Positions 7,760-62,449 of a stretch of DNA of 64,000 nt are shown here, piece by piece. A model generated the notes under the pieces. That model was not told the origin of the DNA and did no database searches. It worked only from the letters and a program-made list of their open reading frames with translations. The stretch is taken from the NCBI GenBank assembly GCA_963816185.1, contig CAWFJJ010000028.1, forward strand, positions 192,001-256,000, read 5' to 3'. Source of the stretch: Thermoanaerobaculia bacterium (lineage in GTDB: Bacteria > Acidobacteriota > Thermoanaerobaculia > UBA5066). The translations under genes and the position numbers were made by a program. Each line of letters starts with the position of its first letter. Position 1 is the first letter of the stretch.

Positions 7760-7790
7760 TTTTGAATTGTACCGGAGAAGAGAAGGGGAT

Positions 7791-7820
7791 TCGGGAGAAG
7801 ATTTCTTAGCCTTCTCCCGA
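7791..7820. promoter_or_regulatory. Perfect 10-bp inverted repeat in the purA/hutH divergent promoter, with a TTCTTAG half-site in the loop
   Basis: TCGGGAGAAG-ATTTCTTAGC-CTTCTCCCGA. Confidence 0.55.
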
Positions 7821-7834
7821 TGCGAGAATGCCGC

Positions 7835-9358
7835 ATGGTGAATCGCGTTCTCGAGCTCGACGGGGACTCTCTTTCACTCGAAGATCTCTACGCCGTGTCC
7901 CGCGGCGAGGCGTCCGCGGGGCTTGCGCCCCGCGCGGTGGAGCGCGTCGATGCGGCACGGGCCGTCATCGACCGCGCGGTCGCCGAGAACCGGGTCGTCT
8001 ACGGCGTGACGACGGGCTTCGGAAACTTCGCCGACGTCGTCATTCCGAGGGAGAAGCTCGGAGCGCTCCAGCTCAACCTCGTGCGGAGCCACGCGGCCGG
8101 TACCGGCGCGCCGCTCTCCGCGCCCGCCGTTCGGGCGGTCATGCTGCTGCGCGCGAACTGCCTCGCGAAAGGGTTCTCCGGCGTCCGCAGGCAGACTCTC
8201 GACCTCCTCCTCGCGTGCCTCGCGAAGGGGATTCACCCCGTCATTCCCGAGCAGGGCTCGGTCGGCGCCTCGGGAGACCTCGCCCCCCTCGCGCACCTCG
8301 CGCTCGCTCTCGTGGGGGAAGGGGAGGTGGACTGGGACGGAAGGCGACGCCCGGCCTCGGAGGCGCTGCGGGCGGCGGGCCTCGTACCCGCGGTGCTCGA
8401 GGCGAAGGAGGGGCTCGCCCTCATCAACGGGACGCAGCTGACGACGGCGTTGGGGGCGCTCGCTCTCCACCGTACCTTGCGCCTCCTCAAGGCGGCGGAC
8501 CTCGTCGCGGCCCTCACGCTGGACTGTCTGAAGGGCACGGACGCCGCATTCGACGCGCGCATTCACGCGGCGCGCCCGCATCCCGGCCAGGTCGCGTCGG
8601 CGCAAAACCTCCGGAGGCTCCTTGCGGGCTCGCCCCTGCGCGAGAGCCACCGGGATTGCGGCATCGTGCAGGACGCTTACGCGCTCCGCTGCATCCCGCA
8701 GGTGCACGGCGCGGCCCGCGACGCGGCCGCGCACGCACGGCGCGTGATCGAGATCGAAATGAACGCCGCGACCGACAACCCGATGGTCTTCACGGAGACC
8801 GGCACGCTCGTGTCGGGCGGGAACTTCCACGCGGCGCCGGTGGCGCTGGTGTGCGACCTCCTCACCGCTTCGGCGGCGGACATGGCGTCGCTCTCGGAGA
8901 GGCGGACGGAGCGGCTCGTGAACCCGGCTCTTTCCGGGGACCTGCCGGCGTTCCTCACGCGGGACGGCGGCCTGAACTCGGGCCTCATGATGATTCACGT
9001 CACCGCCGCGTCGCTCGTCTCCGAGGCGAAATCGAACTCCTTCCCGGCGTCCGTGGACTCGATCCCGACCTCGGCCGGAAAGGAGGACCACGTCTCGATG
9101 GGTCCGATCGCGGCTCGGAAGCTCGTGAAGAACGTCGACCTCTTCGAGACCGTTCTCGCGATCGAGCTGCTTGCGGCGGCGCAGGCCCTGGACCTCAGGC
9201 GCCCGCTCAAGACCTCGCCGCCCCTCGAGGAGCTGCACCGCCTCGTCCGCTCGCGCGTTGCCACCTGGGACGCGGACCGCCAGGCCGCGCCCGCGATCGA
9301 AGGCGCCCGGGCCGTGCTGACCGGGGATCTCGACGATCTGCTTGCGCCGCTCGTCTGA
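7835..9358 (+). CDS. hutH: Histidine ammonia-lyase
   Basis: VYGVTTGFG, LVRSHA, GSVGASGDLAPL (ASG MIO triad), KEGLALING, QDAYALRC, GGNFH, EDHVSMG. Confidence 0.96.
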   Translation: MVNRVLELDGDSLSLEDLYAVSRGEASAGLAPRAVERVDAARAVIDRAVAENRVVYGVTTGFGNFADVVIPREKLGALQLNLVRSHAAGTGAPLSAPAVRAVMLLRANCLAKGFSGVRRQTLDLLLACLAKGIHPVIPEQGSVGASGDLAPLAHLALALVGEGEVDWDGRRRPASEALRAAGLVPAVLEAKEGLALINGTQLTTALGALALHRTLRLLKAADLVAALTLDCLKGTDAAFDARIHAARPHPGQVASAQNLRRLLAGSPLRESHRDCGIVQDAYALRCIPQVHGAARDAAAHARRVIEIEMNAATDNPMVFTETGTLVSGGNFHAAPVALVCDLLTASAADMASLSERRTERLVNPALSGDLPAFLTRDGGLNSGLMMIHVTAASLVSEAKSNSFPASVDSIPTSAGKEDHVSMGPIAARKLVKNVDLFETVLAIELLAAAQALDLRRPLKTSPPLEELHRLVRSRVATWDADRQAAPAIEGARAVLTGDLDDLLAPLV

Positions 9359-9364
9359 GCGGGC

Positions 9365-11353
9365 CTACCTCACGAGCGCCGACGCGAGCGCGCCCGGCAG
9401 GTCGTCCGTGGGCACGTCCATCTCCGCGAGGGCCAGCGCAGGAAGAGGCGCGAGCCCCTTTGAAAGCTTCGGCGCACTCGTCAGCCGGGGACTCACGCGG
9501 TTCAGGATGAGGCCGGGCGCGGCGCCGCGACGTGCGAGGCCGTCGGCGAGATCCGCCGACGTCGCGAGAGCCGAGAAATCCGTGGTCGTCGCGATGAGGA
9601 AGCGGCCTGCGGTCAGGAGCCTCGCCGCCTCCCGGCTCCTTTCCTTGAAACCGTCGTAGAGGCCGTCGAAGGCGCGGAAGAAGTCCGCGAGGTCCGCGAG
9701 AAAGCCAAGCCCGAGAACGCGGTCCGCGGCGCGGAGCAGGGCCGCGCCGCCGCGGGACGCTTCGGAGAGGGCGCGCCCGAAGAAGCCGTCGCGCCGCAGG
9801 AAGAACCGCAGGGCGTCATTCTCGAGGAGAGTGACCATGCGCTCCGGCGCCGAGAGAAAATCGAGGCCTCGCGCGGCGGGAGGCGTGTCCAGGACGAGAA
9901 GATCGACGTCGGGATCCGCCGCGTGCTCGTGCAGGGCCTCGACGCCCATGTACTCGAGGACGCCGGGCAGCGAATCGACCAGGCCCGAGTAGAGACGGTT
10001 CTGGTGGATTCGCTCGAACGTCTCGCGGTTCGCCGTGCGCTGGAGCAGACGCTCGAACGTGGCTTTCGGATCGATCTGAAGCGCGAGGAGGCGGCCGCCC
10101 TTCGGGATGCCGGGCGCGCTCACTTCGGACGGGCGACTGGAGCGCGCGTCCTGCGCGGAAATGCCGAGGGCCTGGGCGAGGCGCCGTGCGGGATCGACGG
10201 TGAGGACGAGGGCGCGCCGCCCCCGGCGCGCGGCCGCCAGGCCGAGCGCGGCCGCGAGCGTCGTCTTCCCGACGCCCCCCGGACCGGTCAGAACGATCAG
10301 CTTCTCGCCGTCGAGCGCGGGGCGGAGATCGAGGGGAGGGGAACCCCGGAGAACGAAGGACGAAGAAGGGTTTCTTTTGCTTTCCCGAGCGGGTCGGCGG
10401 GCAGAAGTCGTACGGTTGCCTTCCCGCGTCGGCGACGCCGCATTTTCTTCGAAGGTGGTTAGAAAAGCAGAAAAGAACTGCGCGGCCTCCGCGGTGGCCT
10501 GGCCGCTACGCTCGCCGGAAAGGCGCCGCACGGGAGCATTCGAAGAAACGCTTTCGGTCTCCTCGTCCTCTTCGAACGGTTCGCCTTCGATCTCCGGAAT
10601 CTCGATCAGCGGAATGGCTGTGTCCCTCTTCGGCAGCGTTTCTTCTCTTCTTCCTCGTCCGACCCGATTCAGGACCACGAGAGCGGTCGTGAGGCCCGCC
10701 TTATCGGCGGCGCCGGCGATCAGCTCCTCGGTTTCTTTCGCCGCGAAATCCTCGGGCTCGGACACGACGATGAGCGCGGTGTCCTTCGACTGAGAAAGAA
10801 GCGCGTCGAGCCACTCCGCGAGCTTCCGGACCGGCCCCGCAGGGACCGTGGCGAGAAGAGTGCGGGGGAGGGCGACGAGCGAGAGCGCGTGGCCCGTCGC
10901 CGGAGCGTCCAGGACGATGACGTCGACCTTCGGCTCGCGCGCGGTCGACTTCTTGCGCTTGAAGATCTCGCGGATCTTCCCGAGGAGGAGGAGGTCGGGA
11001 AGTCCCGGCGTCGCCCGCGTGAAGAACCGGAAGGCCGGGAGCGCGAGGAGCCGGTCGCCGAGGAACTTGACCGGCGCGACCGAGGCCACGAAGTCTGCGA
11101 GGAGAGCGTCGAAGTCCGCGGTGAGCCCGTGGAGGCGCGGGGCCAGATCCACCTCGTGGTAACCGGAATCTCGTTTCTTGAAGAGTTTCGCGGCGTCCCC
11201 CCGGCCGTCCGTCGAGACGAGGAGCACGGTCTTTCCGGCGTCCGACGCGAGCTTCGCGAGCGCGGCCGCAACGGTCGTCTTCCCGACGCCGCCCTTGCCC
11301 GAGACCACGAGGAGGCGGCGGGAGAAGAGGCTTTCGAGAAGAGGCGATCGCAC
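9365..11353 (-). CDS. Duplicated ArsA/Get3-family ATPase (Rv3679/Rv3680-like halves fused)
   Basis: Two deviant Walker A motifs (GKGGVGKTT, GPGGVGKTT). DAPATGH in the first half, TVDPARRLA and DTPP in the second. A low-complexity linker joins them. Confidence 0.85.
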   Translation of the reverse strand: MRSPLLESLFSRRLLVVSGKGGVGKTTVAAALAKLASDAGKTVLLVSTDGRGDAAKLFKKRDSGYHEVDLAPRLHGLTADFDALLADFVASVAPVKFLGDRLLALPAFRFFTRATPGLPDLLLLGKIREIFKRKKSTAREPKVDVIVLDAPATGHALSLVALPRTLLATVPAGPVRKLAEWLDALLSQSKDTALIVVSEPEDFAAKETEELIAGAADKAGLTTALVVLNRVGRGRREETLPKRDTAIPLIEIPEIEGEPFEEDEETESVSSNAPVRRLSGERSGQATAEAAQFFSAFLTTFEENAASPTREGNRTTSARRPARESKRNPSSSFVLRGSPPLDLRPALDGEKLIVLTGPGGVGKTTLAAALGLAAARRGRRALVLTVDPARRLAQALGISAQDARSSRPSEVSAPGIPKGGRLLALQIDPKATFERLLQRTANRETFERIHQNRLYSGLVDSLPGVLEYMGVEALHEHAADPDVDLLVLDTPPAARGLDFLSAPERMVTLLENDALRFFLRRDGFFGRALSEASRGGAALLRAADRVLGLGFLADLADFFRAFDGLYDGFKERSREAARLLTAGRFLIATTTDFSALATSADLADGLARRGAAPGLILNRVSPRLTSAPKLSKGLAPLPALALAEMDVPTDDLPGALASALVR

Positions 11354-11446
11354 GCGGGCGAAGCCTACGCGAGAGAGGGCGATGGCCTCATAATCCGGAA
11401 CTCTAGCAGGAGGCGCCGGCTCATCGGGCCTCGCGAAAGGGATCGC

Positions 11447-31784: not shown

Positions 31785-31832
31785 AGAAAGAAAGAATATT
31801 TTGCTTCGGAAAAGAAAAGAAAAGAACGGATT

Positions 31833-32002
31833 TTCTGCTATCGGCGGCTGCAGACGCAGCCGCCACGGAGGGAACTGCGGTCGGCTCGCGGCTGTCAAGG
31901 GCCTTCGGCCGCTACGCGGCGCGCGGAGCGCGCCCTTGACAGCCAGAGCCGACAAGTACAGTCGGTTCTCGGTGGACGCATCAGCGGCCACCGATAGCAG
32001 AA
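31833..32002. repeat. Nested inverted-repeat element (~170 bp hairpin)
   Basis: TTCTGCTATCGG (31833-31844) pairs with CCGATAGCAGAA (31991-32002). Inner GGCTGTCAAGGGC pairs with GCCCTTGACAGCC. Confidence 0.75.
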
Positions 32003-32048
32003 GAAGATCTTCGGAGAACCTCCTAGAAGGTGAGTAGAGCTTCGGTAT

Positions 32049-33104
32049 TTGCCGTCGCGGTTCGTGTTCGGGCTGAACGGCCCTGAGCTCTCGGAATCGG
32101 AGCGTGCGTTGCTCGTCGCGCTTCGGCCGCTCGGCATCCTTCTTTCTAAGCAGAATCTCCAAACGCCCTTACAGAGCACTTCGCTGCTGGAGGCATTGAG
32201 AGGGCTCTTTTCCCCGGCGCCCCTCCTCTTCGTCTCCCAGGAAGGCGGAAGTGAGGATCCGATCGGCCCGCTCCTCGGGACTCCGTGCGCCTCGGCCGCC
32301 GCGTGCGCGGCGGCGGGGACGGACCGCGTGCACGAGAACGCGTACCTCATGGGGCGCGCGGCGCGGCTCCTGGGATTCGACGTGGATCTCGCCCCCGTGC
32401 TCGATCTCGCGCAGCCGGGCACCGGGGCGGTCGTTCTCGAGGGGCGCTGCTTCGGATTTCACGCCGAGGACGTGGTGGTCTCGGGGTTGATGTTCCTGCA
32501 CGGCCTCGCGCGCGCGGGCCTCGCGACCGCCGTGAAGCACTTCCCGGGCCTCGGGCGCGCGGGGAAGGACACGCGCGTCGCGCGCCCGATCGTGGACGCC
32601 CACGACGTGGACCTCATGGTGACCGACGTCGCGCCCTTCGCGAAGCTGGCTCGCGGTGCCGACGCCGTCGTCGTGGGCCACGCGGCGTACCCGGGCTTCA
32701 CGGGTGACGACACGCCCGCGTCGTTGTCACCGAGGATCCTCGGCGTCCTCCGGGGCTCCGTGGGGTTCGAGGGCGTCGCGTTCGCCGACGATCTCGGGAA
32801 AGGCGCTCTCGACGGAACGCTCCCGGAGCGCGCGGAGCGTGCCGCCCGGGCGGGCTGCGACGCGCTCATCATCTCGGCACATAGCGATGCGCGGGAAGAG
32901 TGCGCCTCGCGCGTCGCCGCCCTGGGCGACGACCCGTCGCGCGACGCGCGCTTCGCGGCGCTACGCCGGCGCGTCGCCGACGCGCCGCGTCCGCGGTTCG
33001 ACGAGGAAACCTGGAAGCGGCTTGCGGAAGAAGCCACAGCCTTCGGCGAACTGGTGTCAAAGCCGAGAAAGAAAAGAGAAGACGGAGATTTCGGATTTTC
33101 TTAG
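32049..33104 (+). CDS. Glycoside hydrolase family 3 N-terminal domain, NagZ-like (degenerate)
   Basis: QEGG, LAPVLD, KHFPGLG, PASLS, FADDL. TTG start. The stop TAG lies inside the TTCTTAGAA motif. Confidence 0.82.
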   Translation: MPSRFVFGLNGPELSESERALLVALRPLGILLSKQNLQTPLQSTSLLEALRGLFSPAPLLFVSQEGGSEDPIGPLLGTPCASAAACAAAGTDRVHENAYLMGRAARLLGFDVDLAPVLDLAQPGTGAVVLEGRCFGFHAEDVVVSGLMFLHGLARAGLATAVKHFPGLGRAGKDTRVARPIVDAHDVDLMVTDVAPFAKLARGADAVVVGHAAYPGFTGDDTPASLSPRILGVLRGSVGFEGVAFADDLGKGALDGTLPERAERAARAGCDALIISAHSDAREECASRVAALGDDPSRDARFAALRRRVADAPRPRFDEETWKRLAEEATAFGELVSKPRKKREDGDFGFS

Positions 33105-33275
33105 AAAGGGTATTTGGGCGGAGAGCGAGGCGCCGGCGGCCTGGGCTCGCTCGGCCCGGTACCCCCTGCTCCTTCGCGCGTGAACTCGCTTCGCTCAGAC
33201 AGCACGCGCGTGCGTCGCAAGGGGCACCGGCGCCTCGTTCGCCTCTCCCCCTTCTAAGAAAATCTTCTCTTCTCT
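33094..33275. repeat. Paired TTCTTAGAA/TTCTAAGAA element, intergenic copy forming a long hairpin
   Basis: GATTTTCTTAGAAAGGG (33094-33110) and CCCTTCTAAGAAAATC (33249-33264). Inner GCGAGGCGCCGG pairs with CCGGCGCCTCGT. Confidence 0.85.
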
Positions 33276-33288
33276 TTCTAGAAATTTC

Positions 33289-43236: not shown

Positions 43237-44816
43237 CGAAGCTCCCGCGGCTCGGCCGCATTCTCGTCGCGAATCGCGGCGAGATCGCGGTGCGCGTGAT
43301 CCGCGCCTGTCGGACTGCCGGGGTCCCGGCCGTTGCGGTGTACTCCGACGCCGATCGCTCCGCGCGCCACGTCGCCCTCGCCGACGCGGCCGCGCACCTC
43401 GGCCCCGCGCCTGCGCGCGAGTCGTACCTTTCGATTCCGCGCCTTCTCGCGGCGGCGCGCGAGACCGGCTGCGGCGCCGTGCATCCCGGCTACGGGTTTC
43501 TCTCGGAGAACGCGGATTTCGCACGGGCGGTGAGGGACGCGGGACTCGTCTGGATCGGTCCGCCTCCCGAGGCGATGGAGGCGATGGGATCGAAGATCGC
43601 TGCGAGAGAAAGAATGAGGACGGCCGGAGTTCCGGTCGTCCCGGGCGCGCTCATTGAAGGATCCGAAGAGCACGAAGAGAAGAAGAGGATTTCTTCGAAT
43701 GGTAAAGAGGCTGAGGGCAGCGCAGCCGCTCGTCGAGCGGCGCTGACGCATCCCGAAACCTCTGGCACTTTCTCAGAAAATCTTTCTTCGGTTCTCTCTC
43801 TCGGTTTTCCCGTCGTCGTGAAGGCGTCTGCCGGCGGGGGCGGCAAGGGAATGAGGATCGTGGCGTGCCCCTCCGATCTTTCCGAGGCAATAGATTCCTG
43901 CCGCCGTGAGGCGCTCGCCGCGTTTGGGGATTCCACGGTCTATGTCGAGAAATACCTACCTTCGCCCCGCCACATCGAGGTGCAGGTATTCGGCGACACG
44001 CACGGGAACGTGGTCGCGCTCGGCGAGCGCGAGTGCTCGCTCCAAAGGCGCCACCAGAAGGTCATCGAGGAGTGTCCCTCGCCCGCCGTGACGCCGGAGC
44101 TTCGAACACGCCTCCAGAACGCCGCCTGCGATGCGGCGCGCGCCGTGGGTTACGTTAACGCGGGGACGGTCGAGTTCCTGCTCGAGCCCTCCGGAGAGTT
44201 CTACTTCCTCGAGATGAACACGCGCCTTCAGGTCGAGCATCCCGTGACGGAAGAGGCCTTCGGCGTGGACCTCGTCGCTCTGCAGCTCCTCGTCGCCGCA
44301 GGCGAGCCTCTGCCCGATCTCCCCACCACGCCCACGGCGCACGCGATGGAAGCGCGCGTCTACGCGGAGGATCCCGACGCGGGTTTCCTTCCGCAAGCCG
44401 GGCATCTCCTCTCGTGGGTCGAGCCTTCGGGACCGGGCGTTCGCGTGGACTCGGGCGTGACGGCCGGCCAGACGGTGGATGTTCACTACGACCCCCTGCT
44501 CGCGAAGATCGTCGCGAAAGGGCGGGACCGGGAGGAGGCACGAGGGCGGCTCGTCGCGGCGCTCGGCGAGACGATCGCTCTCGGCGTGGCGACGAATCTC
44601 TCGTGGCTGAGACGGTTGCTCGAGGCCGCTCCGGTCGTGCGCGGAGATCTGAACACCGGCCTCGTCGAGACGCTTTCGCTCCCCGCGCCTCCATCCCCTC
44701 CGGACGAGGTCTTCGAAGCCGCCTCCTCGGTTCTCTCTCGTGCCGAGCCCGGAAGAAGGTCTCGAGGCGTCCTTTCGAGTCCGTTCGAGGGGCGGTTTCG
44801 GATGGGCGGCGCTTGA
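43233..44816 (+). CDS. Biotin carboxylase subunit (MCC alpha N-part) with ~33-aa in-frame insertion
   Basis: ANRGEIA, HPGYGFLSEN, KASAGGGGKGMR, ECSLQRRHQK, EMNTRLQVEHPVTE. Confidence 0.94.
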   Translation: MTKLPRLGRILVANRGEIAVRVIRACRTAGVPAVAVYSDADRSARHVALADAAAHLGPAPARESYLSIPRLLAAARETGCGAVHPGYGFLSENADFARAVRDAGLVWIGPPPEAMEAMGSKIAARERMRTAGVPVVPGALIEGSEEHEEKKRISSNGKEAEGSAAARRAALTHPETSGTFSENLSSVLSLGFPVVVKASAGGGGKGMRIVACPSDLSEAIDSCRREALAAFGDSTVYVEKYLPSPRHIEVQVFGDTHGNVVALGERECSLQRRHQKVIEECPSPAVTPELRTRLQNAACDAARAVGYVNAGTVEFLLEPSGEFYFLEMNTRLQVEHPVTEEAFGVDLVALQLLVAAGEPLPDLPTTPTAHAMEARVYAEDPDAGFLPQAGHLLSWVEPSGPGVRVDSGVTAGQTVDVHYDPLLAKIVAKGRDREEARGRLVAALGETIALGVATNLSWLRRLLEAAPVVRGDLNTGLVETLSLPAPPSPPDEVFEAASSVLSRAEPGRRSRGVLSSPFEGRFRMGGA

Positions 44817-46141: not shown

Positions 46142-47248
46142 ATGCCGTATCGGATTCTCTTGGCGGACGACAGTCTGACCATCCAGAAGGTCATCGAGCT
46201 GACGTTCTCGGGTACGGATTTCGAGCTCAAGGCTGTCGGAAACGGCGATCTCGCGCCGCCTCTCCTCGATTCGTTCTCTCCCGACATCGTCCTCGCGGAT
46301 TGCGTCATGCCGGGCAAGACCGGGTACGAGCTGTGCGAGGAAGTCAAGCGGCGACCCGGCGGCCGATTCGTGCCCGTGGTCCTCCTCACGGGGACTTTCG
46401 AGCCTTTCGACAAGCCGCGTGCCGAGCAGGCGGGCGCCGACTCGGTCGTGACGAAGCCATTCGACTCGCAGGGACTCGCCACGCTCGTGCGGGACCTCGT
46501 GAACCGAGCCGCTGAAGAGCGAGCCGCTGCGCCTCCCGAGCCCCCTCCGCCGCCAGAGCCCCCTCCCGCGCCGGAATTCGTCCCACCGCCTCCCGTCGAG
46601 GAGCTTGCTGAGTCCACCGACCCCACGCTCGGCGGCGGAGCGGCGTTCTCGACGGTTCCGATGCCCGCGACGACGGCGCCCGTTTCCGAGCCGGATTTCT
46701 ATGCGACCTCGGCAATCCCGGTCCATCGAGAGAGCGAGTTCGAGCCCCCTCCGGATTCAGAGGCCGCCTTCCTGCCGCCTTCCGATCAGCCCACGGAACG
46801 GGTTCCCCCGGTACCTGAACCCTCGCCGGCCGCGTACGAGATGGATCTGGGCGCTCTCGACGACGAGCCGCCCCATCGCGACCTCGAGGCGGACATCGCC
46901 GCGTTCGAGGCGTCCGGGCGCGGCGCCACCCGGCCGGATCTCTGGGACACGCCCGCCGCGAAAGCCGCGGTCGCCGCTTCGCTCGCTGAGCCCGCTCCGG
47001 GCGAGCTCGAAGCCCTCGCAGCCGAGGCGAGCCTGTCCGATCTCAAGAGCCTCATCCCGAAGGCAACGGCATCGGCCGCGGGGGCGCCCGCCGGGCCCCT
47101 CACTGATGACGAGATAGACCGCATCGCGCGGCGGGTTCTCGAGCTCTCCGGCGAGCGCATCGTCCGGAAGATCGCGTGGGACGTCGTGCCGGAGCTCGCC
47201 GAACGCCTCGTGAAAGAGCGCCTCGACGAGCTGGATAAGACGGAATAG
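46142..47248 (+). CDS. RomR-like response regulator (receiver, Pro/acidic linker, conserved C-terminal helix)
   Basis: ILLADDSLTIQKVIELTF receiver domain, Pro/Glu linker, C-terminal KIAWDVVPELAERLVKERL. Confidence 0.78.
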   Translation: MPYRILLADDSLTIQKVIELTFSGTDFELKAVGNGDLAPPLLDSFSPDIVLADCVMPGKTGYELCEEVKRRPGGRFVPVVLLTGTFEPFDKPRAEQAGADSVVTKPFDSQGLATLVRDLVNRAAEERAAAPPEPPPPPEPPPAPEFVPPPPVEELAESTDPTLGGGAAFSTVPMPATTAPVSEPDFYATSAIPVHRESEFEPPPDSEAAFLPPSDQPTERVPPVPEPSPAAYEMDLGALDDEPPHRDLEADIAAFEASGRGATRPDLWDTPAAKAAVAASLAEPAPGELEALAAEASLSDLKSLIPKATASAAGAPAGPLTDDEIDRIARRVLELSGERIVRKIAWDVVPELAERLVKERLDELDKTE

Positions 47249-47264: not shown

Positions 47265-47372
47265 GAGATTTCCTAGAAGGTAAGAGGGCTTGCTGCACGG
47301 GCGTAGCGGACGCGGCGGCGGCGGTGCGGATGCAGCGTCCGGATCGCGCGCCTTCTAAGAACCTCTTCTTCT
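47265..47372. repeat. Paired TTCCTAGAA/TTCTAAGAA element, intergenic copy
   Basis: GAGATTTCCTAGAAGG (47265-47280) and CCTTCTAAGAACCTC (47351-47365), with outer purine and pyrimidine tracts. Confidence 0.82.
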
Positions 47373-47421: not shown

Positions 47422-48768
47422 CTAACCTACCTCGTGGGCGAGCACCAGCCCCCGGTCGAGGTGGTCGATGAGGACGTCCGCGCCCTCGAGGCCCACCGAA
47501 AGGCGGATGAGGCCGGGTGTGATGCCGCGCAGTACGCGATCCTCCTCGGGGACGACCGCGTGCGTCATCGAGGCGGGATGCTGGATGTACGAGATGGCCG
47601 AGCCGAGGCTCACGGCGAGCTCCATCGGCGTGTCCTTTCGCGCGAAGTAGTTCATCAGCTTCTCGCCGGCCGGCGCGCCCCCCACGACCTCGAAGCTGAT
47701 GATCGATCCGCCGTCGCGCATCTGCTTTTTCGCGAGCGCTGCCTGCGGGAAGTCCTCGAATCCGGGCCAGACGACACGTGAAACGCACGAGTGGTTCCTC
47801 AGGAAGGTCGCGACCGTCGCGGCGGTCTCCGATTGGGCCTGCTGCCGGGCCGCCAGGCTTTGCAGAGTCATCGAGTTCAGCCACGAGTCGAACGGAGACG
47901 GGGTCGCGCCCAGGTCCTTGTACCAGGGGAAAAGCGTCTCCTTCATGAACCTGAACGGCCCGAGGACGGCGCCGCCAACGGAAGTCGAGTGGCCGTTCAC
48001 GAACTTGGTGAGCGAGTGGACGACGAAGTCCGCGCCAAGGCGGAACGGCTGCTGAAGGTAAGGCGAGCAGAACGTGTTGTCGACGATGAGGACGATGCCG
48101 CGCTCTTCCGTCAGGCGCGAGATCGCCTCGATGTCGGCGAGTCGAAGAGTCGGGTTCTCGGGCGACTCGAGAAAGACCGTCGAGACTTCAGGATGCTCCT
48201 CGAGCGCGGCTTCGACGGCTACGAGGTCCCCCGTGTCGCAGAAGACCGAGCCGACCCCGAACTTCGCGAGGCCGCGCAGGAGGCTGTCCGTGCAGCCATA
48301 GATGTTCCCCGCGAGAACGGCGTCGCCCGACCTGACCAGGGAAAGGAGGAGCGCCGAGATCGCGCCCATCCCGGACGCGCAGATGAGGCACCCGATCGTG
48401 GGCTCGGTCTCGTCCTCGGCGAGAGCTTTCTCGATGACGTGCTCGGCCTCGAGCCGGAACAGGATGCGCTCGAGGTACTCGGTGGTCGGATTCCCGAGGC
48501 GCGTGTAGATGCGGGCGTACGGACGCTCGCCGCCACGGGACATCCCCAGAAAGCGGTCGGCGCCGTCCTTCACGCTGCGGAACGGGAACGTCGAGCGCTG
48601 GTGGATCGGCGGGAGACCCGTCCCCGCCGCGAGGGTGCGAAACAGGCCTTCCGGCATCTGTTTTTCAGCGTCGCGCACCCAGCGGGTCTTGCGATCGATC
48701 CACCAGTCCCAGAACGAGTGTCGGGCGGAGCCGAAGCGGACGGGGGACCTGCCGAGTGTCGTGCTCAT
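47422..48768 (-). CDS. PLP-dependent Cys/Met metabolism enzyme (methionine gamma-lyase-like)
   Basis: YTRLGNPT, SGMGAI, ESPENPT, VDNTF, HSLTKFVNGH (PLP Lys), AVSLG, HPASMTH, RLSVGLE. Confidence 0.9.
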   Translation of the reverse strand: MSTTLGRSPVRFGSARHSFWDWWIDRKTRWVRDAEKQMPEGLFRTLAAGTGLPPIHQRSTFPFRSVKDGADRFLGMSRGGERPYARIYTRLGNPTTEYLERILFRLEAEHVIEKALAEDETEPTIGCLICASGMGAISALLLSLVRSGDAVLAGNIYGCTDSLLRGLAKFGVGSVFCDTGDLVAVEAALEEHPEVSTVFLESPENPTLRLADIEAISRLTEERGIVLIVDNTFCSPYLQQPFRLGADFVVHSLTKFVNGHSTSVGGAVLGPFRFMKETLFPWYKDLGATPSPFDSWLNSMTLQSLAARQQAQSETAATVATFLRNHSCVSRVVWPGFEDFPQAALAKKQMRDGGSIISFEVVGGAPAGEKLMNYFARKDTPMELAVSLGSAISYIQHPASMTHAVVPEEDRVLRGITPGLIRLSVGLEGADVLIDHLDRGLVLAHEVG

Positions 48769-48887: not shown

Positions 48888-51556
<2,669 letters not shown>

Positions 51557-52355: not shown

Positions 52356-53228
52356 GTGAACGAAACGCCGGAGTCCGGGCGCGCACCGTCCCCGGCGGAC
52401 ACGGGCCTCGACGAGGCGGGCTACGCGACCCGGATCGAGGACGCCTTCATCGCCGAGCGAGGCACGCCGTTCCTCGTGTCGGCGAAGGACTGGAGCTTGA
52501 TCCGCGGATGGCGGGAGACGGGCGTACCCGCCGACACCGTCGTGCGCGCCGTGCGCGAGACATTCGAGAGGCGCCGCGCTCGCGGCCAGGCCGGGAAGAT
52601 CTCCTCCCTCGCGTACTGCGCCGACGCCGTCACCGAGCGCTGGGAGATGGAGCGCCGGGGCCTCGTCGGGAAGGAAGATGCGCCCCCCGCGGCGCCAGAC
52701 GCGGCCGCAACGCGTGAAACGCTCGCCACGCTTGCTGCCGCGCTCCGCGCGGCGGGAGAAGAGAAGAAGAACTTCTTGCTTCGGAAAGAGAAAGAGAGGG
52801 ACCCAGGAGCGACGAGCGATGGCGGAGCGACGGGGATCGCTCTGGAAGTTCTTAGAAGGGGGTATGGGAAGGCGGACGCAGCATCTGAAGTCGGCGTTCC
52901 GGCGCACTCGGGACCCTTCGAAGAATCTTCAGGTGCTCTTCGTAAGGCTCTCGACAAGGCGGCGGCTCAGGTCGAAGAAATCTCCCCCGATCTTCCCTTC
53001 GAAGAAATCGAACACAAGCTGTCCTCTATCGAGGCATCACTCGTGCGAACGGGTCTGAAAGCAATGAATCCCTCTTTTCAGGCCCGCGTGGAAGAACGCG
53101 TCTCTTCGGCGTTGGGAGACGTGTCCCTACTTGCTCCCCACGTCGTCGAGCGCATGCGCAAGGCGCTGACGCGCCGCGAGGTGCGAGCGCTCGCCGGCTT
53201 TCCGCCGTTGACGCTGCTCCATGGCTGA
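52356..53228 (+). CDS. Hypothetical protein (DnaD-like N-terminus) containing a motif-derived segment
   Basis: IEDAFIAERG...SAKDWSLI..W...GVP pattern. Operonic position, overlapping the next start. Confidence 0.65.
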   Translation: MNETPESGRAPSPADTGLDEAGYATRIEDAFIAERGTPFLVSAKDWSLIRGWRETGVPADTVVRAVRETFERRRARGQAGKISSLAYCADAVTERWEMERRGLVGKEDAPPAAPDAAATRETLATLAAALRAAGEEKKNFLLRKEKERDPGATSDGGATGIALEVLRRGYGKADAASEVGVPAHSGPFEESSGALRKALDKAAAQVEEISPDLPFEEIEHKLSSIEASLVRTGLKAMNPSFQARVEERVSSALGDVSLLAPHVVERMRKALTRREVRALAGFPPLTLLHG

Positions 53229-54645
53229 CGTCCGTCCCGGGGAGCGCGCCGACGTGGCGATCGAGCGCGTCGTGCCGGGGGGAGACGGGCTGGCGCGCCT
53301 TTCGGGCGTCGTAACGCTGGTGTCCGGAGGACTGCCGGGAGATCGTGTGCGCCTGCGGGTGACGGAGGCCTCGGATCGTCTCGTGTCGGGCGCCCTCGAG
53401 ACGGTGCTTTCTCCCGGCGAAGCGCGCCGGCCGGAGGCTGAGATGTGCCCCCGGGCGCGGGACGGCTCGTGCGGCGGATGCGACTGGCCGGCCGCGCGCC
53501 TCGAGCATCACCGCGAGCTGAAGACGGCGATCGTCCTCGACGCCCTCCGGCGGCTCGCGGGCCTTCGTGCCGAGGCTCTTCCGGAGCCGCGCTGGCTCGG
53601 CTCCGCGCGGAACTATCGGTTGCGAAACCGCCTGCATCTCGATCGGCAGGAAAGACTGGGCTTCTTCGCGCCTCGCTCGAACACCGTCGCGAACCTCGAG
53701 ACGTGCGAGATCGTCTCGAAGGCGCTGCTCGCACGGCTGCCCGCGATTCGCGATTTCCTGAAGGGCTTCGGGGGGATGGAAGGAGAGCTCTGGACGCTGG
53801 AAGACAGGGAAGGAAAAACGCTGCTCGGCGAGATGCGGCTCGACGGGCCGCGTCTCGGCGAAGGTCATGGTCCGCTAGTTACTTCGAAGGTGAAAGACAG
53901 GGGGAGGGGACCGTTCGACGGATTTCGAGTCGTCGATGCGGGCGGCCGCATCCTGCTCTCGGACGGGCCGTCGTCCCTGTCGATCGTCGCGGGCTGCGCA
54001 TCATTCGACGTCTCCGTCTCTTCTTTCTTTCAAGGAAACCTCTACCTCCTCGACGCGTTTCTCGAAGAGGTCCGGACCGCGCTTCGCGCCGAGCGAGAAG
54101 ATTCCGCGCTTCGCGCGGTGCTTAGAAGGGAAGAGGGGCGAAGGGAAAAGGGGCGCGCCCTGCCCGTTCGCGCGCTCGACCTCTACGCTGGGGTAGGGTT
54201 CCTCACACGTCCTCTTCTCGAGCTCGTGCGCGATGCGGGCGCGGGGGACGTGACTTCAGTGGAGATCGAGCCGTCCGCGTCAAATTCCCTTTCTAAGAAT
54301 CTTTCTCTCTGGTCTTCCCAGGGCCTACCCCTTGCGCGCGCGGTCCGTGCGACCGCGGAGTCTTTTCTTTCTTCGCAGAGAGCGTCGAATTCTCCGAATC
54401 CGCCGATCGACGTGCTCGTCGCCGATCCGCCGCGCACAGGCCTTTCGCCCGCCGTGCGTGCCGGAATCCTCCGCCTCGCACCGCGGCATCTCCTGATGGT
54501 CTCGTGCGATCCGCCGACGTTCGCGCGCGATCTTTCGGCCCTGGGATCGCGTTACGCGGTCGAGCGGCTGACCCTCCTCGATCTCTTCCCCCAGACGCAC
54601 CACGTGGAAACGGTCGCCTTGCTCACGCGGCGCGAAGTCGGATAG
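53221..54645 (+). CDS. TRAM-domain RNA (uracil-5-)-methyltransferase, RlmD/TrmA family
   Basis: TRAM domain, C..CGGC, SFFQGN, LDLYAGVG, DPPR, VSCD, DLFPQTHHVE. Confidence 0.92.
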   Translation: MADVRPGERADVAIERVVPGGDGLARLSGVVTLVSGGLPGDRVRLRVTEASDRLVSGALETVLSPGEARRPEAEMCPRARDGSCGGCDWPAARLEHHRELKTAIVLDALRRLAGLRAEALPEPRWLGSARNYRLRNRLHLDRQERLGFFAPRSNTVANLETCEIVSKALLARLPAIRDFLKGFGGMEGELWTLEDREGKTLLGEMRLDGPRLGEGHGPLVTSKVKDRGRGPFDGFRVVDAGGRILLSDGPSSLSIVAGCASFDVSVSSFFQGNLYLLDAFLEEVRTALRAEREDSALRAVLRREEGRREKGRALPVRALDLYAGVGFLTRPLLELVRDAGAGDVTSVEIEPSASNSLSKNLSLWSSQGLPLARAVRATAESFLSSQRASNSPNPPIDVLVADPPRTGLSPAVRAGILRLAPRHLLMVSCDPPTFARDLSALGSRYAVERLTLLDLFPQTHHVETVALLTRREVG

Positions 54646-54654: not shown

Positions 54655-57078
54655 ATGCGAGCGTCGTGGTCGAGGGAGGCGGGGGCGCCTTCGCTGCCCC
54701 TTGCGGGTGGCCTGGCTGCCGGAATTCTCGCGGCAGCCGTTCTCCCCGTGCCGCCAACGCACGCCCTCGGCGCCGCTCTCGTCATCGCATCGGCCGCCGG
54801 GGTCGCCCTGGCAATGCGGAAAAGCCGTGTGCGTGCTTTCGCCGGACTGATTCTCACCGTGTGCGCCGGGTTCTGGAACGCCCGCGAGCGATACCTGCTT
54901 CCTGCTCTCCGCTCGGAGTCCGAGGCGCACGCCGCGCTCGTCCGTGCGCGGGCGGCGGACCCGGCCGCCGACGGAGCTCTTCTCGAAGTCACCGGTCGTC
55001 TCGACGCACCGTGGACCACGAGCGGCTCGCTTTTCAGGACGCGGCTCGCCGTCGAAGCGGCCTCGGCGAACGGGCGCTCGCTGCGTCTGGAGTCGGGTGT
55101 GCCTCTCACGGTCGCCGGACAGCGGGACCCCGCCAGCGTCGCCGAGCTCGGTGACCGCGTGCGCGTGCGTGGCACGCTGCGCCTTCCCGAGGCGGGCGGC
55201 CCCAGCCGTTCTCCGTTCGACCTTCCCGCCGAGCCTCGGCTCGCGCTCAAGAGCGCCGCCCAAGTCGAGCGGCTCGGCCCGCCCAAGGGACCTCTCTCGC
55301 TCGTGGCGCGCGCGCACGCCGCCGTGAAGCGGCGTCTTCGCACGAATCTCGCCGGTGCCACACCCGAAACGCGCGGAGCGCTCGCGCTCCTCCTCGCCCT
55401 CGTGATGGGCGAGACGCAGGACCTGCCCGCGGCGACGATAAGCGCCTTCCGAGACGGCGGAGTCGCGCACATCGTCGCCATCTCGGGATTGCAGGTCGGA
55501 CTCGTCGCGGCGCTGCTCGGATGGCTCGCGCGGAGACTCGGCGCATCCCTTGCCGCGCGCGACTCGTTCGTGCTCGTCGCGACGGCTCTCTTCGCGATCT
55601 TCGCCGGAGGCAGGCCGCCGGTCGTGCGCGCGGCGCTGATGATCGGCCTCTATCTCTTCGCGCGCCTTCTCGGACGCCCAACCTCGGCGATGCACGTCCT
55701 CGGGTTCGCCGCGGCCGTGCTGCTCGCCGCCGATCCCTCGAATCTCTTCGACGTGGGGTTCCTCCTCACGTTCGCGGCCGTGTTCGGCCTGGCGGCGTTC
55801 GGCGTCCCTGCGTCAAGAGCCATGCGCCGGATCGGGATTCCGGGGCTCGTCGCGGACGCCCTCGGCGCAACCACGGGCGCCGAGATCGCTGTTCTCCCGA
55901 TCCAGCTCTTCGTGTTCAACGTCGTGCCCGTCGTGGCGTTCCTCTCGAACCCGTTCGTCGTGCCTCTCTCGAGCGCCTTCCTGTTCGCGGGCCTTTTCCT
56001 CCTTCCTCTCTTGCTGCTATCCCCCGCGTCGGCGGCCGTCGCGATCGTGCCGCTGAGATTCCTGTCGGATGTCCTGCTCGCGATGCTCCTGGCCCTCGAC
56101 CGGCTGCGTGCGGTGAGGGTCGTCCCGACGCCCGCGTTCGCCCTGGTCGCGATCACGGCCGCGCTCCTCGTCGTCGCGGGTTTCGCGCGGCGCCTCGCTC
56201 TCCGGCGCGCGGCGCTGGCCGGGGCGGCGGCGGTCGTCCTCGCCGTCGTTCTCGCCCGGCCGGCCGCAGCGGAGCGGGGCACGGTGGTGCTTCAGGCGCT
56301 CGACGTGGGGCAGGGGGACGCGTGGCTCCTCGTGACCCCCGAAGGCCGCGTTCTCGTGGACGGAGGGGGCAGCCCCGACCGCGCTTACGATTTCGGCCGC
56401 CTCCGGCTGGTGCCGCGGCTGACCGACCTCGGGGCGGTGGCCTTCGACGCCGTCATCCTCACGCATCCGCACCCCGACCACACGCGCGGGCTCCTCGCTG
56501 TCCTGACGTCGCTCCCGGTCGGGCGCGTGATCCTGGCCCGGGCGGCGCCCCGCAATCTCTTCCTCGACGAGTTCGAGGATGCGGCCGCGCGCCGGCACCT
56601 CCTGCTGGAGCGCTTCGGCGCCGGTCAGCGCTTCACGGCGGCGGGCCTGTCCTTCGAGGTGCTGCATCCGGGGGACGATCGATACCCCCGCGCGCGGGAG
56701 AACAACGGATCGCTCGTGCTGCGCGTAGCGCTCGCGGGGCGCACGGCGCTTCTCGCAGGCGACATCGAGGCGCTCGCCGAGAGCGATCTCGTCGCGTCGG
56801 ACCGGAACCTTGCCGCCGACATCCTGAAGGTCCCGCATCACGGGAGCCGGACGTCCTGTACGGCTGCGTTTCTCGCCCGCGTCTCTCCGCGGCTCGGGTT
56901 GATCGGCGTCGGCCGCCGCAACCGTTTCGGCCATCCGGCGGCCGAAGTCATCGAGCGACTGGCCTCCGCGGGCGTCCGGACGTTCCGGACGGATCACGAC
57001 GGGGAGGTTGCGCTCCTCATCGCGGGCCGCCGCATCTTGCCGATCTTCCCCGAGCACCTCGCGCGGGAGGTCCCGTGA
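54655..57078 (+). CDS. comEC: DNA internalization competence protein ComEC/Rec2
   Basis: AHIVAISGLQV, RAALM, GFLLTF, LDVGQGDA, THPHPDH, KVPHHGS, NRFGHP. Confidence 0.93.
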   Translation: MRASWSREAGAPSLPLAGGLAAGILAAAVLPVPPTHALGAALVIASAAGVALAMRKSRVRAFAGLILTVCAGFWNARERYLLPALRSESEAHAALVRARAADPAADGALLEVTGRLDAPWTTSGSLFRTRLAVEAASANGRSLRLESGVPLTVAGQRDPASVAELGDRVRVRGTLRLPEAGGPSRSPFDLPAEPRLALKSAAQVERLGPPKGPLSLVARAHAAVKRRLRTNLAGATPETRGALALLLALVMGETQDLPAATISAFRDGGVAHIVAISGLQVGLVAALLGWLARRLGASLAARDSFVLVATALFAIFAGGRPPVVRAALMIGLYLFARLLGRPTSAMHVLGFAAAVLLAADPSNLFDVGFLLTFAAVFGLAAFGVPASRAMRRIGIPGLVADALGATTGAEIAVLPIQLFVFNVVPVVAFLSNPFVVPLSSAFLFAGLFLLPLLLLSPASAAVAIVPLRFLSDVLLAMLLALDRLRAVRVVPTPAFALVAITAALLVVAGFARRLALRRAALAGAAAVVLAVVLARPAAAERGTVVLQALDVGQGDAWLLVTPEGRVLVDGGGSPDRAYDFGRLRLVPRLTDLGAVAFDAVILTHPHPDHTRGLLAVLTSLPVGRVILARAAPRNLFLDEFEDAAARRHLLLERFGAGQRFTAAGLSFEVLHPGDDRYPRARENNGSLVLRVALAGRTALLAGDIEALAESDLVASDRNLAADILKVPHHGSRTSCTAAFLARVSPRLGLIGVGRRNRFGHPAAEVIERLASAGVRTFRTDHDGEVALLIAGRRILPIFPEHLAREVP

Positions 57079-59307: not shown

Positions 59308-59320
59308 TGGAGGGTCTTTG

Positions 59321-60019: not shown

Positions 60020-60031
60020 GGCGCCCGGTTC

Positions 60032-60891: not shown

Positions 60892-60910
60892 CCCGCAGAA
60901 AGGAAAAAGG

Positions 60911-61105: not shown

Positions 61106-61144
61106 AACTAATCAGTAGGGCCGGAATCGCATGGAGTCAAGAGA

Positions 61145-61241
61145 ATAAAAGGGAAGATTTCTTAGAAAGTGGATATGCGACGCGGCAATTCGCTGCGCCA
61201 TGATTTCCTCTTTGCCTTTCTAAGAAGATCTTCTCTTTATC
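61145..61241. repeat. Paired TTCTTAGAA/TTCTAAGAA element, intergenic copy
   Basis: ATAAAAGGGAAGATTTCTTAGAAAG (61145-61169) versus CTTTCTAAGAAGATCTTCTCTTTAT (61216-61240), a ~25-bp imperfect inverted repeat. Confidence 0.85.
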
Positions 61242-61267
61242 TTTCTTCACATTGCCTTCCATGCTCG

Positions 61268-62371
61268 TCACTTTGCCGCCGGCGCGGCCACGAGGATTTC
61301 GAAGCTGCCGGCCACGATCGGTCTGCGCGAGCGCGGATTCCCGGACGTCGGCGGCGGGGGAGGCCCGAAATGCGCGGTCGCGAGGAAGATCGCGTGCGTC
61401 TTCGGGTCGAGGGCCATCGTCCGCGCTCCTTCCTTCGTCGTGAGGTTCTGGACGACGCGAAACGCGTCGGGCGAGTCCTCGTGGATGACGGTCAGGGTGC
61501 CCTCTCCGTTCGAGCTGAAGACGAGGTTCGCGTCGGGATCGAAGGCCACGGCGTCCACCCCCCTGCCGATCGGCAGCTTCGCGACGGCGCGGCCGTCTCC
61601 CGTGCTGAGGACGACGAGGACCTTGTTTCCGCAGCCCGAGAAAAGGCGCTTGGCTTTGACGTCGATCGCGAGACCGGTCGGGGAATCGCAGCCCGCGAGA
61701 GGCCAGTGCGCTTCGACCTTCAGCGTGCGCGCGTCGAACGCGACGATCTCGTTCCTGTCCTCGATGTTCACGTAGACGCGGCCCGCGAGATCGGCGACCG
61801 CGAACTCGGGTTTCCCTCCGAGCGGAAACGTGCCGGCGACGGCGCCGGTCGCGCCCTCGAAAGCCGTGACGTTCGCGGTGCGGCCGTTGAACGTGAAGAC
61901 ACGGTGCGAGACGGGTTCATAGAGGATCGCGTCCGGGTTCTCGCCGGGCACCTTGACGGTCCCGAGCGTGGCCAGCGTCTTCGGATCGAAGATCGTGACC
62001 GTGTTCGCGCGGCCGTTGCTCGTGAAACCGCGGCCGAGATCCGGAGCCAGGGCGATGCCGTGCACGCCCTCCGTGTTCGGGATCTCGCCCTCCGGTGCGC
62101 CCGAATCGACGTTCAGGACGGCGACGTGCGTGCCCCTCGAGACGTAGAGCCGCCGGGCCGAAGAGTCGACGGTGAGGTAGTCCCAGCCGCCCTCTCCGCC
62201 CGCGGCGACCGTGCGCACCACGCGATACGAGGGGTCGGCGGCATTGGCGGCGGCCGCGAAAAAGAGGAAGAGGAAGAAGACGAAAAAGGAGAGATTCTTA
62301 GAAGGGAAGAGAAAGAGAGGGAATTTCTTAGAAAGGTGAGTACGGGCCCTCACGCGCTTCAGGGTCATCAT
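61268..62371 (-). CDS. YncE/YVTN-type beta-propeller protein, secreted
   Basis: GGWDYL, GVHGIA, GFTSNG, NPDAI, GKPEF, GARTMALD repeats. Signal peptide ends AAAANA. Confidence 0.85.
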   Translation of the reverse strand: MMTLKRVRARTHLSKKFPLFLFPSKNLSFFVFFLFLFFAAAANAADPSYRVVRTVAAGGEGGWDYLTVDSSARRLYVSRGTHVAVLNVDSGAPEGEIPNTEGVHGIALAPDLGRGFTSNGRANTVTIFDPKTLATLGTVKVPGENPDAILYEPVSHRVFTFNGRTANVTAFEGATGAVAGTFPLGGKPEFAVADLAGRVYVNIEDRNEIVAFDARTLKVEAHWPLAGCDSPTGLAIDVKAKRLFSGCGNKVLVVLSTGDGRAVAKLPIGRGVDAVAFDPDANLVFSSNGEGTLTVIHEDSPDAFRVVQNLTTKEGARTMALDPKTHAIFLATAHFGPPPPPTSGNPRSRRPIVAGSFEILVAAPAAK

Positions 62372-62422
62372 TTTCTTCTCCGCTCTTGTCCTGGACTCTT
62401 TACCTTCCAAGAAATCTTCTCT
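62291..62422. repeat. Paired element with duplicated left arm, overlapping the YncE start and signal peptide
   Basis: GAGATTCTTAGAAGGG (62291-62306), GAATTTCTTAGAAAGG (62321-62336), right arm CCTTCCAAGAAATCTTCTCT (62403-62422). Confidence 0.8.
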
Positions 62423-62449
62423 TACTCTTCTCTTCCCGGGGCGCGATTA

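Follow-up and report, generated by a model that had tools for sequence, protein, structure and literature searches.

What accounts for the AT-rich patches that interrupt an otherwise GC-rich stretch of a bacterial chromosome, and that carry the same short word again and again, usually as an inverted pair? The stretch in question, called the window below, is a 64,000-nucleotide part of contig C28 in the genome of a Thermoanaerobaculia bacterium (G000), a prokaryotic assembly of 5.09 Mb in 30 contigs with 62-69% G+C and a completeness of 94.9%. An original prediction, made from the letters of the window, had proposed that these words, here called arms, are either paired binding sites for a DNA-binding or nucleoid-organizing protein or the ends of a palindromic element that invades coding sequence. 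We find that a pair of arms has the anatomy of a short inverted-repeat element, that the family is limited to one genus and occupies orthologous sites in its species, and that the core of each arm is better conserved than the DNA around it. The explanation that we favor, with a probability of roughly 0.55, is that the pairs form an ancient orphan family of inverted-arm elements in one Thermoanaerobaculia genus, similar to REPINs (doublets of repetitive extragenic palindromic sequences), MITEs (miniature inverted-repeat transposable elements) and Rickettsia palindromic elements (RPEs), whose cores would be held under sequence-specific constraint by a putative reader.

Abundance, anatomy and range of the convergent arms

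The core of an arm is TTTCTTAGAAGG, a 12-nt word that usually has GA directly 5′ of it, and matches with up to 2 mismatches were accepted. By this definition the window holds 23 arms, as compared with a mean of 0.88 and a maximum of 3 in 100 shuffles of its 20-nt blocks, and the word GATTTCTTAGAA is matched 7 times at ≤1 mismatch where 0.02 matches are expected. The excess extends to the whole of G000, in which 843 core matches are present versus 66-83 after shuffling of 20-nt blocks and 60-78 after shuffling of 40-nt blocks, and in which the exact 12-mer GATTTCTTAGAA occurs 51 + 50 times. The arms also have partners. Among neighbors less than 400 bp apart (26 self-overlaps set aside), 204 pairs are convergent (+ then −) and 17 divergent, with 43 and 34 in the two tandem orientations, and an inward-facing partner within 3 mismatches is found for 549 of 842 arms, versus 76 for the outward control. 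In agreement with the original prediction, neither the frequency nor the pairing of the arms is that of chance, and both arms lie within 2 mismatches of the core at seven of the nine pairs that it listed, as well as at 54118/54289. Its further statement that the most conspicuous AT-rich patches carry the motif holds for half of them: an arm is found within 45 nt of 12 of the 24 top 30-nt patches, and a further four (31793, 32134, 51344 and 52764) have the look, by eye, of purine tracts or degenerate arms.

The start-to-start distance between paired arms has its mode at 74-75 bp and a tail that reaches beyond 300 bp, with no sign of 10.5-bp helical phasing across G000 (vector strength 0.036). 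Neighboring arms of the same orientation cluster at 30-36 nt throughout the genome. Tandem duplication of arms with a period of about 30 nt can be seen directly at 62294/62324 in the window and at a biotin carboxylase locus of another genome (L010 in G043), where the protein reads QKISASERERGETKISSN. When arms within 400 bp are merged, 519 loci result, which are present on all nine of the largest contigs at a mean density of 5.25 per 50 kb; the distribution is over-dispersed (variance/mean 1.97) and has no obvious gradient along the unordered contigs. The original prediction had offered matS, parS and SBS sites as an analogy in role; a chromosomal placement like theirs finds no support in loci that are spread over all large contigs.

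Each end of a pair consists of a purine-rich tract, the word (G)ATTTCTTAGAAGG and an inner flank that resembles KGAAKRGGG (for example GGTGAATGGGG or GGGAAGAGGG), and the two ends converge across about 60 nt. A position matrix is purine-rich from about −20 to −2, with a purine fraction of 0.62-0.81 over 842 arms, and then enters a core whose third letter is C and whose seventh is G; the conserved letters of this core make up a TTC-N3-GAA dyad. The polypurine and polypyrimidine outer flanks noted earlier are real as a tendency rather than as a rule, because GAAGA stands upstream of 293 of the 842 arms. Both arms of a pair fit a single consensus in inverted orientation, as terminal inverted repeats do. 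Their interiors, as had been observed for the window, are mutually unrelated: 178 of 203 are singletons by blastn-short, and the few clusters consist of a second MITE-like repeat nested in six copies and of paralogous coding sequence. Contigs from four DNA sequencing runs, which cover the window thinly, show no joint at any element, a result that is uninformative either way; one of these contigs omits 9 nt at 47350.

The motif is a property of one genus. Every one of 24 sampled genomes of the genus contains it, with 59-245 matches each to a 14-mer at ≤1 mismatch, and the 189 matches in G000 are balanced between the strands (100 forward, 89 reverse). No match is present in 5 genomes from four sister genera of the same family, and 16 genomes from two other families of the same order (among them G025 and G030, flagged as unpublished) have 0-2 matches, versus 0-1 for a reversed control pattern. 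The exact paired pattern is present in at least 108 stretches of a species-representative collection, and among the matches listed 80 of 80 records are titled as Acidobacteriota or Thermoanaerobaculia metagenome bins. It has 0 matches in viral contigs, where an 18-mer gives 34 single matches; we take these to be chance because a second arm accompanies none of them. Over-representation, strand balance and restriction to a taxon are traits that uptake sequences share. In metagenomes the arms are a sequence marker of the genus.

Descent, decay and translation at orthologous sites

Synteny across the window is intact with three congeners, at blastn identities of 78-90% (G003), 80-90% (G011) and 70-80% (G014), and the places where the alignments break coincide with elements. 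Decay by deletion is observed at four of these places. At 7797, where a solo or variant arm had been reported, G000 retains 66 nt as the remnant of a full pair that is kept in G003 (154 nt) and G014 (187 nt), whereas G011 has the left arm and the interior. Both arms of the 10444/10537 site are present in G011 and G014, and G003 is short by about 90 nt that include the right arm. The 52848 site is a pair in G003, a left arm alone in G011 (42 nt) and an armless 21 nt in G014. At the site that begins at 33094, the arms 33097/33250 occupy the orthologous place in all four species, while the interior, about 130 nt long and alignable between G000 and G003, differs in G014 and is almost missing from G011.

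The same pattern emerges when the comparison is reversed. From 96 perfect elements taken from other species, the orthologous place in G000 could be located for 76, which carry both arms in 32 cases, one arm in 24 and none in 20. The interiors of 140 elements from many species form clusters of at most 4 members; three members of the largest map to one site of G000, and the small clusters are therefore read as orthologues. Over 68 sites, between-species identity is 0.916 and 0.904 for the two cores, 0.759 for the interiors, 0.76-0.77 for the inner flanks, 0.76-0.79 for the purine and pyrimidine tracts and 0.83 for the 350-nt flanks, as determined by gapped global alignment, which can favor similar words and to that extent counts against the constraint that these values suggest. 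In 406 arms, C3 and G7 never change, even though the search tolerated 2 mismatches at any position. We read the family as an old one, probably of vertical descent, that has been worn down chiefly by deletion and whose cores appear to be under constraint.

A minority of copies lie within genes and are translated. The 43690/43768 pair is in frame in a biotin carboxylase subunit, between the residues VPVVPG and GFPVVVKASAGGGG (roughly residues 145-182), and its arm variants, TTCGAA and TCTCAGAA, lack the in-frame TAG and TAA stops of the consensus. The segment that two anchors delimit is 91 residues long in G000 and 84-96 in six further loci that bear the pair, versus 52-63 in 11 loci of the genus, some of which have two arms abutting (EKISLNGTFKEIL), and 51-52 in 4 sister-genus loci that lack the motif. 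The lengths of the homologues are 523-537 residues versus 479-502 and 485-491. The Pfam ATP-grasp match resumes at residue 178, at profile position 25, and in an AlphaFold2 model with a mean predicted local distance difference test score of 81.1 residues 145-182 fall below 50. Similarly, the 10444 pair is read through in frame in the linker of two P-loop halves in an open reading frame (ORF) without a stop, whose domain matches are ArsA_ATPase in two stretches (the best at 351-511) and CbiA at 15-239. These two proteins present what an RPE-like element is expected to present, namely a translated in-frame insertion in a host protein that is kept.

Such copies are few. In G000, 17 of 203 pairs lie stop-free between flanks that look coding in a single frame, as compared with 1 that has stops, and 55 of 843 arms are read through whereas 702 clearly are not, so that the share of copies read through is about 6-8%. 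The prediction of an RPE-like, coding-invasive element is borne out by the anatomy and by the biotin carboxylase and ArsA-like copies; it is weakened by this low share. An A/C variant at core position 6 shows C in 9 of 15 arms of one sense phase, a class that is perhaps inflated by paralogous kinase-like genes. Those genes, in which two arm-like 12-mers at a distance of exactly 104 nt are part of the coding sequence (EEFFEGE ... SFEEI; Table 1), have also inflated the counts of pairs in coding DNA. Gene calls in this work come from a crude codon-score caller made for the analysis, and kinase-like, FG-GAP-like, signal peptide, purA-like and hutH-like are labels given by eye.

An N-terminal leader may be a further outcome. 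ORF 61268-62371 (−), which encodes a beta-propeller-like protein, starts within the 62294-62414 element, and its first 44 residues (MMTLKRVRARTHLSKKFPLFLFPSKNLSFFVFFLFLFFAAAANA...) are encoded by an arm and its pyrimidine tract; by eye this N-terminus resembles a signal peptide, with ANA as its cleavage motif. Host proteins gain linkers, loops and perhaps signal peptides from the elements, which also break gene callers and homology searches, as can be seen from biotin carboxylase search matches that split at the insert.

What may have made and kept the arms

In the history that we favor, the arms would be the two ends of old, short, non-autonomous palindromic insertion elements, which may have multiplied in the ancestor from which one uncultured Thermoanaerobaculia (Acidobacteriota) genus descends and would since have been transmitted vertically, each at its fixed place in the chromosome. 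The interior would have been free to drift, to be deleted or to take in other small mobile elements, such that the spacers now look unrelated and single arms are left over. The 'turnover core' that the original prediction assigned to the spacer is better explained in this manner, by drift, deletion and the occasional nesting of another MITE. Copies in tolerant parts of genes would stay open and be translated as disordered loops, linkers and N-terminal leaders. By contrast with the interior, the core of 11-12 nt seems to be held as sequence and not as half of a stem, which suggests that a trans-acting factor shared across the genus still reads it on DNA. This putative reader could be a transposase outside the tested families, a domesticated transposase or a host DNA-binding protein, and a TTC-N3-GAA dyad would suit a dimeric one. 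The paired protein-binding site envisaged earlier stays a candidate, consistent with cores that are conserved in sequence and with partners that do not compensate for each other's changes. It is possible, and we propose it tentatively, that the core is the recognition site of a genus-specific DNA-reading system, seeded by an extinct palindromic element and maintained, genes included, at about 500 loci through drive or selection; a DNA-uptake signal, the site of a nucleoid or segregation protein, and a domesticated transposase are the candidates for such a system.

A number of results weigh against an origin by insertion. The Y1/RAYT transposase family (PF01797) has 0 matches in G000 and is present in 4 of 29 genomes of the genus, and DDE_3 (IS630 type) is present in G000 and 3 of 26 other genomes of the genus, so neither is co-distributed with the motif. 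The remaining family matches in G000 are DDE_Tnp_1 (1), rve (25, of which 17 are over the cut-off) and OrfB_IS605 (0), next to a single match for DDE_3, and none of the 19 transposase matches in these families is flanked by convergent arms. An autonomous copy was not found either, as 39 convergent arm pairs that lie 400-6000 bp apart enclose ordinary genes. A target-site duplication of 4-6 nt shows no excess at symmetric distances relative to shuffled partners; one of 2-3 nt, or one eroded by age, would escape this comparison. Orthologous loci do differ in the presence of elements; every clean case that can be polarized looks like a loss rather than a gain, and interior comparisons within G000 and among the 140 elements reveal no recent paralogous copies.

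Single arms, moreover, may arise or persist without net insertion. At 54118/54289, which had been listed as a pair, both arms are real and flank genuine coding sequence; the interior is a coding segment alignable in four species, all of which have the right arm, whereas just two of them, G000 and G003, have the left one. Short-form biotin carboxylases carry an arm-like TFEEIL in a segment that is no longer than that of sister genera. The 32016/32142 pair is more degenerate and is missed at the 2-mismatch threshold. Its degenerate left arm and its interior are shared by G003, G011 and G014; the right 'arm' at about 32142-32155 is coding sequence (LLSKQN) for the N-terminus of a GH3 (NagZ-like) protein, as is the interior, and Glyco_hydro_3 spans residues 19-279 of ORF 32049-33104. 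On the cases at 32016 and 54118/54289, single arms might arise or persist on their own.

Two observations accompany the transposase search. As the original prediction stated for transposases and RAYT, the contig range of the window contains no match to Y1/RAYT, DDE_Tnp_1, rve, DDE_3 or OrfB_IS605. Among the transposase families tested and the distant pairs, no insertion sequence (IS) or RAYT whose ends match the arms was found in the genome. One IS has a 2-mismatch arm match at a fixed offset in 3 of its 4 copies, which looks like a chance internal match, and two distant pairs of equal length (2283 and 2284 bp) are mutually unrelated and encode FG-GAP-like proteins.

The main rival explanation, which we consider unlikely, is that the arms are a never-mobile DNA signal of the genus, such as an uptake sequence or the site of an organizing or regulatory protein, kept by drive or selection, with paired sites that cooperate. 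It would account for the strictly genus-wide and strand-balanced occurrence, for the failure to find a transposase, a target duplication or young copies, for cores conserved above flanking DNA that is mostly coding, and for the constraint on each arm singly and without compensation. Arm-like coding words that entail no change in length (51271 in the valyl-tRNA synthetase (ValRS) gene, and TFEEIL) and a 54118 arm found in just two of four species also speak for it. The window encodes ComEC as well, but ComEC is widespread, so that its presence here does not discriminate. Independent accumulation of a signal predicts neither that 65% of arms are paired, nor the 12:1 excess of convergent pairs, nor their spacing of about 75 bp, and relative to sister genera the full pair is an insertion of 35-45 residues. 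Uptake sequences, in addition, are largely intragenic, whereas read-through is clearly lacking for 702 of the 843 arms, and the loci lie on all large contigs, with neither a macrodomain-like restriction nor helical phasing of the spacing. Less probable still is a neutral fossil, in which a dead MITE family has neither function nor reader and the conservation of the core is an artefact of ascertainment or alignment. Young copies and a partner transposase were not found, and one or both arms have been lost in G000 from 44 of 76 orthologous sites, as such a fossil would predict. Yet G000 was not used to ascertain those sites, and its cores nevertheless stand at 0.90-0.92 versus 0.76 for interiors; all 24 sampled species keep their near-perfect 14-mers at coding identities down to about 73-77% at the nucleotide level; and C3 and G7 do not vary within the mismatches that were allowed.

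The lowest probability falls to a role in RNA, whereby the arms would base-pair in transcripts of either direction and form a hairpin that would stop transcription or shield the upstream mRNA, as has been proposed for REP elements. Single-strand folds of four window copies do pair the arms (z = −3.24 for the 61158 copy, and −1.84, −1.35 and −2.58), which follows from both arms fitting an inverted consensus, and in tandem gene pairs the element tends to lie nearer the 3′ end of the upstream gene (by-eye medians of about 50 versus about 100 nt). There is no sign that pairing is what selection acts on. In 194 pairs, the complementarity of partner arms does not exceed that of shuffled partners, either within the core or beyond it, and no compensatory changes between partners were found; at core position 6, for example, both arms are consensus in 100 pairs, one arm is variant in 46 and 38, and both are variant in 19 (Fisher p = 0.87). 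Interiors are weakly structured, with z below −2 in 9.7% versus 2.5% of random genomic controls and z above 0 in 39%. Gene starts and gene ends are flanked equally (n+ 28 and −n 23 versus +n 23 and n− 20), and 27 of 131 elements outside ORFs lie in divergent intergenic regions. Terminator-like sites between 43000 and 62900 occur at the chance level (13 versus 12.9 expected) and none lies in the interior of a pair. An Rfam scan of the window yields two tRNAs and nothing else, and a scan for sigma-70 promoters found 0.

Further readings were rejected. Intrinsic terminators were set aside on the chance level of terminator-like sites and on elements being as frequent at gene starts as at gene ends. 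A ribosome-binding role, suggested by the position of the 32016 arm upstream of a start codon, does not fit arms that occur equally at gene starts and ends. The arms can also be read as AG|GTGAGT ... YAG in the manner of a spliceosomal intron, an idea that was dropped because the genome is that of a 5.09-Mb prokaryote and its in-gene copies are kept open. A likeness to ribosomal RNA may be a coincidence: the 3′ end of the 16S rRNA and the start of the spacer (C1:445500-445580) read GGATCACCTCCTTTCTAAGGGATC, which is similar to the right arm TCACCTTCTAAGAAATC; a Shine-Dalgarno-like AGAAGGTGA is consequently part of the left arm.

How the family relates to known systems depends on which of its traits are compared. 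Proteobacteria and Rickettsia have well-documented dispersed palindromic repeats. The closest anatomical match is to REPINs, which are described as consisting of two invariant inverted 16-mers whose first residues are 71 bp apart, separated by a less conserved spacer, as commonly showing compensatory changes in the hairpin and as being linked to RAYT transposases (PMC3116915). The inverted doublet with a preferred spacing, 71 bp there and 74-75 bp here, is shared, and so, for the REPINs of Pseudomonas and Enterobacteria, are singlets as remnants of doublets, hundreds of copies around a 'master sequence', long vertical inheritance and a mostly extragenic location. The family differs in its RAYT content (none in G000, few in the genus), in having no compensatory changes where those of REPINs are described as common, in spacers without detectable mutual similarity and in copies that lie in frame in genes. 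Because linkage to RAYT and compensatory change are both lacking, we do not file it as REPIN. Membership in a RAYT/REPIN system was likewise rejected, since RAYT is missing from G000 and rare in the genus, and since arms are not consistently beside RAYT genes: the four RAYT loci of the genus have one arm each at L065 and L068 and no arm at L066 and L067. According to a later preprint, REPINs decay when RAYT is absent (10.1101/2021.07.10.451892). If the genus-specific reading system that we propose tentatively is real, a 'REPIN-like' orphan population would have persisted without RAYT, contrary to the decay expected of REPINs that lose their transposase.

Other known systems match in part as well. 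RPEs reportedly occur between genes and in frame within protein-coding genes of Rickettsia (attributed to Ogata et al. in 2000), and they share with the present family a short palindromic form, inter- and intragenic copies, a translated insert in an intact host protein, a genus-wide range and old age. The host phylum and the consensus are unrelated, however, about 6-8% of copies here are read through, and members of an RPE family can be aligned over their full length whereas here this is true of the arms alone. Bacterial MITEs are likewise small, non-autonomous, AT-rich relative to the host, bounded by terminal inverted repeats, mostly intergenic and able to nest, but for the present elements no target-site duplication, no IS with matching ends and no young copies were found, and the interiors are unrelated. 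The DNA uptake sequences of Neisseriaceae and the uptake signal sequences of Pasteurellaceae resemble the arms as 10-14-nt motifs of a genus or family with hundreds of copies on both strands, frequent inverted pairs near gene ends, conservation at orthologous sites and tolerance of coding frames that avoid stops. The arms differ from them in a lower density (about 1 per 6 kb), in a pair that encloses about 60 nt instead of a short loop, in the dominance of pairs with a preferred spacing and in the full pair being an insertion relative to sister genera.

Among the papers listed, the literature search yielded neither the motif in a bacterial setting nor a description of such a family in Acidobacteria. 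The family is unusual in its age, which is that of a genus with 29 species or more, in having no partner transposase among the tested families and in cores that are stricter than their mostly coding neighbors. Together, these traits point to a putative protein that would read about 500-800 sites per chromosome, and this reader of the core is the main point of interest.

Individual copies and neighboring features

The arms of the window and the coding look-alikes discussed above are collected in Table 1.

Table 1. Arms and arm-like words in the window (window positions), and kinase-like paralogue copies in G000 (contig positions)
Feature	Position	Strand	Context
Truncated left arm (GATTTCTTAG, then break)	7797..7812	+	Between purA-like and hutH-like genes in divergent orientation
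Pair	Cores 10444-10455 and 10537-10548; element 10444..10548	+ and −	In ArsA/ParA-like ATPase ORF 9365-11353 (−)
Degenerate left arm and right 'arm'	32016..32155		Just 5′ of TTG start (32049) of GH3/NagZ-like gene
Pair	Cores 33097-33108 and 33250-33261	+ and −	Between 3′ ends of GH3 gene and ssb
Extra arm-like match	33285-33296	+	Near 33097 pair
Pair with purine and pyrimidine tracts	Cores 43690-43701 and 43768-43779	+ and −	Inside biotin carboxylase gene 43233-44816 (+)
Pair	Cores 47269-47280 and 47351-47362	+ and −	3′ of response-regulator stop (46142-47248 +)
Arm-like 12-mer	51271..51282	+	ValRS coding sequence (VEISSKVE)
Pair	Cores 52848-52859 and 52915-52926	+ and −	
Solo arm	52996-53007	−	3′ of 52848 pair
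Solo arm	53879..53890	+	10 nt upstream of, and antisense to, ATG of ORF 53026-53868 (−)
Two arms	54118-54129 and 54289-54300	+ and −	Within TRAM/tRNA-U5-methyltransferase-like ORF 53221-54645 (+)
Shortest clean pair of window	Cores 61158-61169 and 61216-61227	+ and −	Intergenic
Tandem left arms and right arm	62294-62305, 62324-35 and 62403-62414; element 62294..62414	+, + and −	
Kinase-like paralogue copies	C23:5303-5406, C24:616380-616483, C24:620203-620306, C24:602898-603001, C28:51682-51785, others		Two arm-like 12-mers as coding sequence

Several of these copies differ in their distribution among the congeners. The 47269 pair, which also adjoins the 3′ end of a Cys/Met pyridoxal-phosphate enzyme gene (47422-48768 −), is found in G000 only, with none at the orthologous place in G003, G011 or G014 apart from what by eye is a remnant in G011. 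The solo arm at 53879 is conserved in all three congeners. G003 has the 61158 pair plus about 900 extra nt, and it also has the 62294 element. The site at 51271, which had been counted as a solo or variant arm, measures 62 nt in all four species, with no change in length, and is probably a coding look-alike rather than an insertion.

A second, unrelated MITE-like repeat of about 190 nt occupies window positions 31830-32015. Its ends are like TTCTGCTATCGGCGGCTGC...GCGGCCACCGATAGCAGAA, it has an inner palindrome (...GTCAAGGGC..GCGCGC..CCCTTGAC...), and other copies are located at C24:129878-130207, C25:104916-105135 and elsewhere, with copies nested within several arm pairs. In G000 this repeat adjoins the left arm at 32016, and it is absent from that place in G003, G011 and G014, which makes it look like a recent gain in G000.

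On contig C1, a convergent arm pair with 2 mismatches in each arm, 4.45 kb apart (C1:442793-447258), brackets the only 16S rRNA gene found in G000 (444004-445559), an arrangement that may be due to chance. Within the window, the ComEC/Rec2-type protein, with Competence and Lactamase_B domains, is encoded at 54859-57078 (+) and adjoins two repeat loci. Finally, mutS is split across two frames at 29156-31784 (+), with MutS_I and MutS_II in ORF 29156-30358 and the end of MutS_III, MutS_IV and MutS_V in ORF 30291-31784, as the result of either a frameshift, which would make the strain a possible mutator, or an assembly error.

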